A stretch of 20,418 bases of DNA from a virus. Below the pieces are notes generated by a model. It searched no databases. It had not been told where the DNA came from and saw only the letters and a list, made by a program, of their open reading frames with translations. The position numbers were made by a program, and so were the translations under genes. The stretch lies in the UHGV virus genome UHGV-0101751; one strand, given 5' to 3'. Shown here in pieces: positions 1-254 of this stretch (its first letter is position 1; every line of letters begins with the position of its first letter).

Positions 1-54
1 AAGGCCTTTGAATAAGACAAAAGGCTGCCTCATCGCTAACTTTGCAACAGTGCC
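1..54 (+). mobile_element. IS26 (IS6 family) right-end fragment; the IS body lies upstream of the window
   Basis: Positions 1-54 match the last 54 bp of IS26 as I recall it (AAGGCCTTTGAATAAGACAAAAGGCTGCCTCATCGCTAACTTTGCAACAGTGCC), ending in the 14-bp terminal IR TTTGCAACAGTGCC. The exact reverse complement sits at 20365-20418. Confidence 0.85.
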
Positions 55-254
55 CTTTTATCTCTCATAACCACCAGCGTCGATGCCGCCGGAGATTGGT
101 ATTTGAATATTCTGGCCTGCGGTGCTGGCTTTGCCTCAGAGACAGGAATAGGACGAGATTGACATGCAGTGATAAGTAACGCGGAGGCAGCAACCAGAGG
201 AAGTAATACGTGTTTCATTGTACCGAACAAAATCCTTATCTTTACGAAAATCAT
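36..254 (-). pseudogene. Lipoprotein gene fragment, 3' end replaced by IS26 sequence
   Basis: The ORF encodes a typical lipoprotein signal peptide with lipobox (MKHVLLPLVAASALLITAC). The reading frame runs across the IS26 junction at 54/55 and stops inside IS26, so the native C-terminus is missing. The likely true start is the internal Met at 216-218. Confidence 0.4.

Follow-up and report, generated by a model that had tools for sequence, protein, structure and literature searches.

IS26 has the terminal inverted repeat (TIR) GGCACTGTTGCAAA (PMC8477213). Its transposition leaves different traces according to the route taken: an event in trans gives an inversion with an inverted 8-bp target site duplication (TSD), whereas an event in cis gives a deletion with a partial gene and no TSD (He et al. 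2015, PMC4471558). IS26 in clinical plasmids is usually without a TSD (PMC4471558), and in IS26 pseudo-compound transposons the IS copies are invariably direct repeats (Varani et al. 2021, PMC7986276). SSU5-like phage-plasmids concentrate their insertions at one locus, whose listed neighbour genes include DNA ligase, and IS6-like/IS26 elements are frequent beside resistance genes in phage-plasmids (Pfeifer et al. 2022, PMC9600943).

The window analysed here, the whole 20,418-nucleotide stretch of virus genome UHGV-0101751, is probably a stretch of SSU5-type backbone between two accessory regions of a large mosaic IncFIB resistance/metabolic plasmid, shaped by successive deletion-type IS26 events. 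With the IS26-driven reorganisation documented in other plasmids (PMC4471558, PMC7986276), it shares the TIR and the 54-bp IRR end, the 820-bp copies (in the complete relatives), the absence of abutting TSDs and the presence of partial genes; the host plasmid likewise carries several IS26 copies, one pair of them with an inverted-TSD signature. In contrast to those cases, the pair at the window has neither an inversion signature nor a direct TSD, and it marks the edges of two regions rather than a single event. The likeness to SSU5 and pHCM2-type phage-plasmids (PMC9600943) lies in the same backbone genes, in DNA inserted downstream of the ligase gene and in IS26 and Tn3-like elements beside cargo. 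However, the complete relatives of the window reach 150-170 kb, hold two very large accessory regions and align with an IS26-free relative over about 55 kb, in three blocks. Judged from their sequences, these relatives look like degraded phage-plasmids that are not inducible.

The whole window is found at 100% identity in two finished plasmids, NZ_CP058829.1 of Shigella flexneri STLE3 (169,932 bp; two SNPs relative to the window, at 5194 and 20363) and NZ_CP090457.1, plasmid pB379_2 of E. coli B379, which resembles CP058829 with an additional ISKpn19 insertion. Just 54 bp of each IS26 copy fall within the window itself; the 820-bp elements and their 705-bp tnp26 genes were read in the complete plasmids. 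In both of these an 820-bp IS26 lies on either side, the left one with tnp26 on the plus strand and the right one in minus orientation. The flanking copies are 99.5-100% identical to one another, and their 705-bp coding sequences, the length expected for the 234-aa DDE transposase of IS26, are annotated as IS26 family transposase (WP_001067855.1 and variants). Extension by about 1 kb, the check proposed in the first-pass annotation, therefore leads into full 820-bp IS26 copies in both plasmids, with IS26 rather than other sequence on either side. Each junction is private to CP058829 and CP090457 among the plasmids compared.

An unrelated metagenome contig (ENA ERZ27274620 k141_7385) covers the left portion of the segment together with 141 bp of the adjacent IS26; over 10,254 bases compared, it differs from the window solely at 5194. 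We infer the arrangement of the window in its own genome from the two near-identical complete plasmids and this contig. The window base A5194 is G in CP058829 and in the ENA contig, a synonymous difference (GTA/GTG) in the terminase gene. At the second variable site, both complete plasmids have C for the window's T20363, only 2 bp away from the junction with IS26; matches to intact tnpA copies likewise end at 20362. Both differences are private to the window among the comparators checked.

Positions 1-54 (AAGGCC...CAACAGTGCC) and 20365-20418 are perfect reverse complements, and the 14-nt TIR, at 41-54 as its reverse complement and at 20365-20378, agrees with the published IS26 repeat at 14 of 14 positions. 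The description of both ends as one 54-bp IS26 terminus in opposite orientation was thus accurate. In CP058829, each of the seven full IS26 copies has these 54 nt at its IRR end, distal to tnp26. The tnp26 coding sequence ends at window base 2 in both complete plasmids, so that bases 1-2 of the window are the last two of its stop codon. A repeat finder returned 55 nt at 100% (1-55 and 20364-20418), the 55th base pair, C55/G20364, being a chance match outside IS26. The identification as IS26, made by sequence comparison, rests on the TIR, on the exact match to PGAP-annotated IS26 copies and on agreement of the 54-bp terminus with what we take to be the right-end sequence of IS26. Coordinates of these and the other features are given in Table 1.

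Table 1. Features of the window, blocks compared between the reference CP057716 and CP058829, and variant-bearing IS26 copies
Feature	Window	Strand or orientation	CP057716	CP058829	Remarks
IS26, last 54 bp, IRR end	1..54	+			tnp26 would be upstream, + strand
Fusion ORF	36..254	-			First 66 codons (200 nt, 55-254) of 152-aa putative lipoprotein gene plus 6 IS26 codons
8 bp abutting left IS26, CTTTTATC	55..62	.			Unmatched, direct or reverse-complement, at all IS26 flanks of CP058829
SSU5-type phage-plasmid backbone, native order	55..17448	.			Annotation, Pfam, SSU5 identity, CP057716 collinearity
Tn3-family 38-bp terminal inverted repeat, GGGGTTTGAGGGCCAATGATGTAAAAAACCACGCTAAG	17449..17486	+			Backbone/transposon boundary between 17448 and 17449
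Tn3-family tnpA minus first 126 nt (42 codons)	17482..20364	-			tnpR and passenger genes absent
8 bp abutting right IS26, CCCCTATG	20357..20364	.			Both complete plasmids read CCCCTACG; unmatched at all IS26 flanks
Second IS26, last 54 bp, IRR end toward interior	20365..20418	-			Opposite orientation
Shared block		+/+	16511-20240	29290-33022	
Accessory region 1			20241-21610 (1.37 kb), replaced	33023-87450	54 kb: ars, Tn3/TEM-1, tet(A), class 1 integron, sul3, ttr
Window interior		+/+	21611-24558, 27996-34664, 38264-40696	87451-104844	Two variable internal stretches between
Accessory region 2			40697-47409 (6.7 kb), replaced	104845-163218	58 kb; directly oriented IS26 #4 and #8 at its ends
Shared block		+/+	47410-51496	163219-167287	
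Variant-bearing IS26					Extract coordinates: CP058829 11235-12054, 32365-33184; pB379_2 11235-12054, 35225-36044; p1585m1_B 8235-9054

At the left junction, IS26 truncates a gene, as had been stated: the window retains 200 nt of a gene that measures 459 nt (152 aa) when intact in pLAO59, and the remaining open reading frame runs into IS26, where it terminates in ...RALLQS and a stop codon. The gene is intact in 35 of the 40 plasmids with this region. Its designation as a lipoprotein comes from the sequence pattern and stays putative, a signal-peptide/lipobox-like N-terminus (MKHVLLPLVAASALLITAC, …LLITAC) having been read by eye. Among curated families, NCBIfam gave no match and Pfam a sub-threshold one to DUF2846 (19.6 bits against a cut-off of 34.3). 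The junction-specific ORF at 36-254 occurs in 133 blocks of the collection, none of them on contigs beyond the 20-50 kb bin.

The right IS26 cuts a Tn3-family tnpA, in agreement with the first-pass annotation. The intact gene has 3,009 nt in pSYM6, of which 126 are lost in the window, and it is intact in hundreds of plasmids. The truncated product matches the Tn3 transposase profile NF033527 (E=0, 1095 bits, profile positions 23-954) and, in Pfam, PF01526 (4e-153) and DUF4158 from model position 38. Membership of the Tn3 family is indicated by this large DDE transposase (NF033527/PF01526) together with an inverted repeat (IR) of about 38 bp of the GGGG...ACGCTAAG type; the 3' end of tnpA lies inside the 38-bp IR, and the gene is cut at 20364. 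In transposon-free relatives, the match ends at 17448. The second IR, resolvase/res and 5-bp TSD of a complete element are lacking in the window, where IS26 cuts the element off at 20364. CP058829 has no further IR that matches; the one bounding accessory region 1 on its far side differs in sequence and in its 5-bp flanks.

The closest described element is the transposon of pSYM6 (KM107842), with the order tnpA-tnpR-SIR2-DUF87/HerA-like. Of that element, the window has the 38-bp IR and tnpA, the latter at 99.9-100% identity but short of its first 126 nt; tnpR, the passengers and the second IR are missing. Intact copies of this transposon continue with tnpR, then a SIR2-family gene and a DUF87/ATP-binding (HerA-like) gene; in the extracts examined for two intact copies, the stretches concerned are 5583-7796 and 7209-10922. 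These passengers look like a defence-type pair. Beyond the window, on the far side of the right IS26, lies an unrelated tnpA of Tn21-family-like type, truncated at its N-terminus (921-aa ORF), so this IS26 joins two different broken tnpA genes. The ISKpn19 of pB379_2 (ISKra4 family, 2,849 bp; extract coordinates 29440-32310) sits exactly at the boundary between backbone and Tn3-family IR (window 17440-17450), with the 11-bp direct repeat CTTGGGTTAGG on both sides; the site is uninterrupted in the window and in CP058829.

The interior encodes a DEAD-box helicase, a ParB_N-domain protein, a terminase large subunit, a portal protein, a GNAT/DUF1778 (TacAT-like) toxin-antitoxin pair, a ParA-like ATPase, a DnaB-like helicase and a DNA ligase. 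It thereby combines the packaging genes (terminase, portal) and the partition and replication domains (ParA-like, ParB_N, DnaB-like) of SSU5-type phage-plasmids, and its helicase-ligase replication module has 92.6% nucleotide identity to SSU5 (query 9411-17394, window about 9465-17448). Relatives are typed IncFIB. Accessory region 1 starts about 1.2 kb downstream of the ligase gene, a position that fits the insertion locus reported for SSU5-like phage-plasmids (PMC9600943).

Within this backbone, the ParB_N/terminase/portal module (window about 2490-7790) is replaced by tail-fibre genes in CP057716 and pLAO59, and in the phage collection the same module is found in Klebsiella phage-plasmids at only about 82% identity; the module swap and this distant match indicate a mosaic backbone. 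An internal deletion at about 14501-14506 (CP058829 90393-90398) has removed reference positions 24559-27995, which carry a sel1-repeat protein and a DNA primase gene, with a 6-bp overlap at the joint. Plasmid p1585m1_B has about 9 kb extra between the DnaB-like helicase and the ligase (primase-like, DprA and hydrolase/helicase genes). A near-palindromic 22-nt motif, TAGATAAGTAAGTACTTACCTA, is present at 5617-5638, 11653-11674 and 17100-17125, with a weaker copy at 7131-7153. Its copies are mostly intergenic or at gene ends; with up to 3 mismatches allowed there are 4 matches, where 0 are expected. The motif may serve the phage-plasmid as an operator or promoter. There is also a 43-nt repeat at 3565-3607 and 11528-11570 (95% identical); at its first copy lies a hairpin with 24-nt arms (3546-3569 and 3591-3614, 96% complementary) that contains ATATATACGGAAGCAGG.

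The first-pass annotation had proposed that the 20-kb interior may be inverted or relocated relative to its original context. The model that it named first, intramolecular replicative transposition of IS26, would mean that one trans event made the second, inverted copy and flipped the interior. The full sequence of CP058829 was assembled and compared with CP057716.1 (69.9 kb), a reference with one matching place (each IS26 copy adds a place) and no annotated IS26 transposase. All shared blocks have the same order and the same orientation (Table 1). The interior is in its ancestral place and orientation, and the foreign DNA lies outside the window.

The TSDs lead to the same result. Flanks were compared for the seven full and one partial IS26 copies of CP058829, giving 15 flanks; the copies at the window are #3 and #4. 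Neither the left copy (GTCTGCCG / CTTTTATC) nor the right copy (CCCCTACG / CTGATGAG) has matching 8-bp direct repeats, which bears out the statement that no simple single-insertion signature is present. Such an absence is no argument against IS26 identity, since it is usual for IS26 in clinical plasmids (PMC4471558). The two inner 8-mers, CTTTTATC and CCCCTATG, had been quoted correctly as neither direct nor inverted matches to each other. However, pairing inner 8-mers with one another is non-diagnostic for either model; an inversion has to be tested by pairing inner with outer flanks, which requires sequence past the contig ends. In CP058829, neither the inner-left and outer-right 8-mers (CTTTTATC and CTGATGAG) nor the outer-left and inner-right ones (GTCTGCCG and CCCCTACG) are reverse complements, and the search for 8-bp duplications in inverted configuration, with all flank pairs compared, found none linking #3 and #4. 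The sole 8-bp match among the 15 flanks is between #5 and #6 (GCCAGACG / CGTCTGGC), which shows that the test has power in this plasmid. Copies #5 and #6 lie outside the window at 111752-112571 and 136167-136986, in inverted orientation and with reverse-complement flanks. They thus bear the signature of a real intramolecular trans inversion, here of the bcs (cellulose synthesis) region of about 24 kb.

The fate of the missing gene parts is also informative. Searched with blastn against CP058829, the plasmid alone, neither the 3' part of the lipoprotein gene with the adjoining 6 kb of backbone nor the transposon remainder (tnpA 5' end, tnpR, SIR2, HerA-like) gave a match. An inversion would have kept these halves beside the partner IS26, and their absence points to deletion. 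With a collinear interior, mismatched diagnostic 8-bp pairs and missing gene halves, the proposal of an inverted or relocated interior is not supported.

The IS26 copies themselves carry a trace of common descent. In both complete plasmids the window-flanking copies have G48A, a change upstream of tnp26, and the other copies there are canonical. A 48A/614A variant is shared by copies #3, #4 and #8 of CP058829 and by the IS26 of p1585m1_B; G614A changes Tnp26 by G184D. G184 is the residue altered in the reported hyperactive IS26 variant G184N. In pB379_2 both flanking copies are 48A but 614G, with a third nearby copy canonical; these flanking copies are either hybrids from exchange between IS26 elements or assembly errors. 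An order of events drawn from IS26 SNPs was set aside as of low weight, because position 614 differs between the plasmids and gene conversion and sequencing error are inseparable. Taken as a group, the variant copies point to one IS26 lineage resident in a dispensable region, with nested deletions, a direct pair around region 2 and a sister copy in tnpA.

Region 2 also contains pieces of other plasmids (IncA/C mobI, a repA regulator, parM and umuDC). At the far edge of region 1, a different Tn3-family IR, GGGGTCTGAGGGCCAATGGAACGAAAACGTACGCTAAG, is found beside the ars operon (CP058829 33023-33060). The 5-bp flank there is GTAAT, against TAACC at window 17448; the different IRs and 5-bp flanks make region 1 a composite of two or more Tn3-family insertions, whose merging cost the backbone 1.37 kb. 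Three plasmids, p1585m1_B and two relatives, have a single IS26 in the same backbone gap, without accessory DNA, with end-points at window 213 and reference 47029. Relative to those of the window, the p1585m1_B end-points are as expected for nested adjacent deletions. As a direct ancestor p1585m1_B was rejected, since both junctions differ (window 213; reference 47029), and it is better described as a sister outcome.

These observations may be joined as follows. The window ends would be the inward IRR ends of two separate, full-length and oppositely oriented IS26 copies. The left one would form the edge of a region of about 58 kb with directly oriented IS26, which appears to have replaced 6.7 kb including the 3' part of the lipoprotein gene. 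The right one would lie inside an accessory region of about 54 kb that replaced 1.4 kb of backbone. The interior is native backbone plus a Tn3-family remnant inserted downstream of the DNA ligase gene. As to how the events were ordered and of which molecular kind each was (cis deletion, cointegration or IS26-IS26 recombination), we infer that IS26 insertion or cointegration would most likely have come first, followed by intramolecular replicative transposition in cis with adjacent deletion; IS26-IS26 recombination possibly added to the cis deletions. The attribution to replicative or successive IS26 events in the first-pass annotation thus named the right class with successive events, but its inversion component fails for want of an inverted 8-bp pair and on the collinear interior.

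A single inversion accounts for copies that are inverted, without TSDs and alike in G48A, by a mechanism that is well documented (PMC4471558) and has one instance elsewhere in CP058829, at #5/#6. Of the marks of a trans inversion, however, the inverted copies are the one found here: both pairs of inner and outer 8-mers fail as reverse complements, the interior is collinear with the adjoining backbone of CP057716, the target-gene halves are absent rather than parted between inner and outer flanks, and the outer-right flank is an unrelated Tn21-family-like tnpA. A single inversion is accordingly very improbable. An even number of inversions, or one inversion with RecA-mediated flipping between the inverted IS26 copies and later deletions, would produce the same end state as that observed, and intramolecular copy-in would likewise give sister copies sharing G48A. 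Movement of the interior and its two IS26 as a unit, be it a composite or pseudo-compound transposon or a translocatable unit, has even less to commend it and would be most surprising. IS26 at both ends is a feature shared with pseudo-compound transposons such as Tn2680 and Tn6023, but these have direct repeats around accessory (resistance) genes, always direct according to Varani et al. (PMC7986276). Here the copies are inverted and without a TSD, and they enclose the replicon's own backbone in native order, the accessory DNA being outside.

A more serious alternative, which we regard as possible though less likely than not to be the main process, is that the junctions arose mainly by IS26-IS26 recombination between molecules, either RecA-dependent or through targeted-conservative cointegration by Tnp26, fusing plasmids or translocatable units. 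The directly oriented sister copies #4 and #8 around region 2 are the expected product of cointegration, the fragments of other plasmids within that region are in line with it, and the 48A/614G copies of pB379_2 look like hybrid IS26 from exchange within the element. By itself, however, recombination leaves the losses of 6.7 kb and 1.37 kb and the cut genes unexplained, so that a step of insertion or deletion at new targets is still needed, and p1585m1_B has lost backbone next to a single IS26 and carries no accessory DNA. Successive deletion-type events, to which such recombination may have contributed, thus remain the preferred reading.

The position at which the window stops has a technical explanation. 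G precedes GGCACTG… at both junctions. The two ends therefore share the 55-mer of G plus 54 bp of IS26, at which a k=55 de Bruijn graph would branch. The arithmetic for k=55 gives 20,310 + 2×54 = 20,418, exactly the length of the window. For the k141 contig, with 141 bp of IS26 at its end, the simple formula gives 20,590, one base more than its 20,589 bp. Most likely, the window is a whole short-read contig from a k=55 de Bruijn graph broken at the IS26 repeat, with the arithmetic exact for k=55 only. Its bracketing by IS26 is most simply a consequence of the contig ending at a repeat and is no evidence of a biological unit. The exact fit to k=55 and the regular breaking of junction-bearing contigs within IS26 could suggest that the terminal inverted repeat is purely an assembly artefact, with no two real IS26 copies behind it. 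This has hardly any likelihood: both ends enter IS26 by the same IRR end, which is impossible with one copy, and two independently finished plasmids show two full copies. The contig break accounts for the stop position, not for the junctions.

IS26 landscapes like this one, in a mosaic resistance plasmid derived from a phage-plasmid, are textbook material, and the feature is already known in kind. Resistance plasmids of enterobacteria routinely show IS26 junctions without a TSD, truncated genes beside them and contigs that break at IS26. The contig is therefore to be read as native phage-plasmid backbone between accessory regions and not as a mobile or inverted module. A more speculative idea, to which we assign a small chance, is that the G48A lineage (with G614A in two independent assemblies), resident in one gap across plasmids from Australia, Hong Kong and China, could be converting phage-plasmids into non-phage resistance and metabolic plasmids of 150-170 kb by nested deletions and accretion. 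The plasmid lineage of the window illustrates how IS26 and Tn3-family elements, acting at the known locus near the ligase gene, both erode and enlarge an SSU5-type phage-plasmid.
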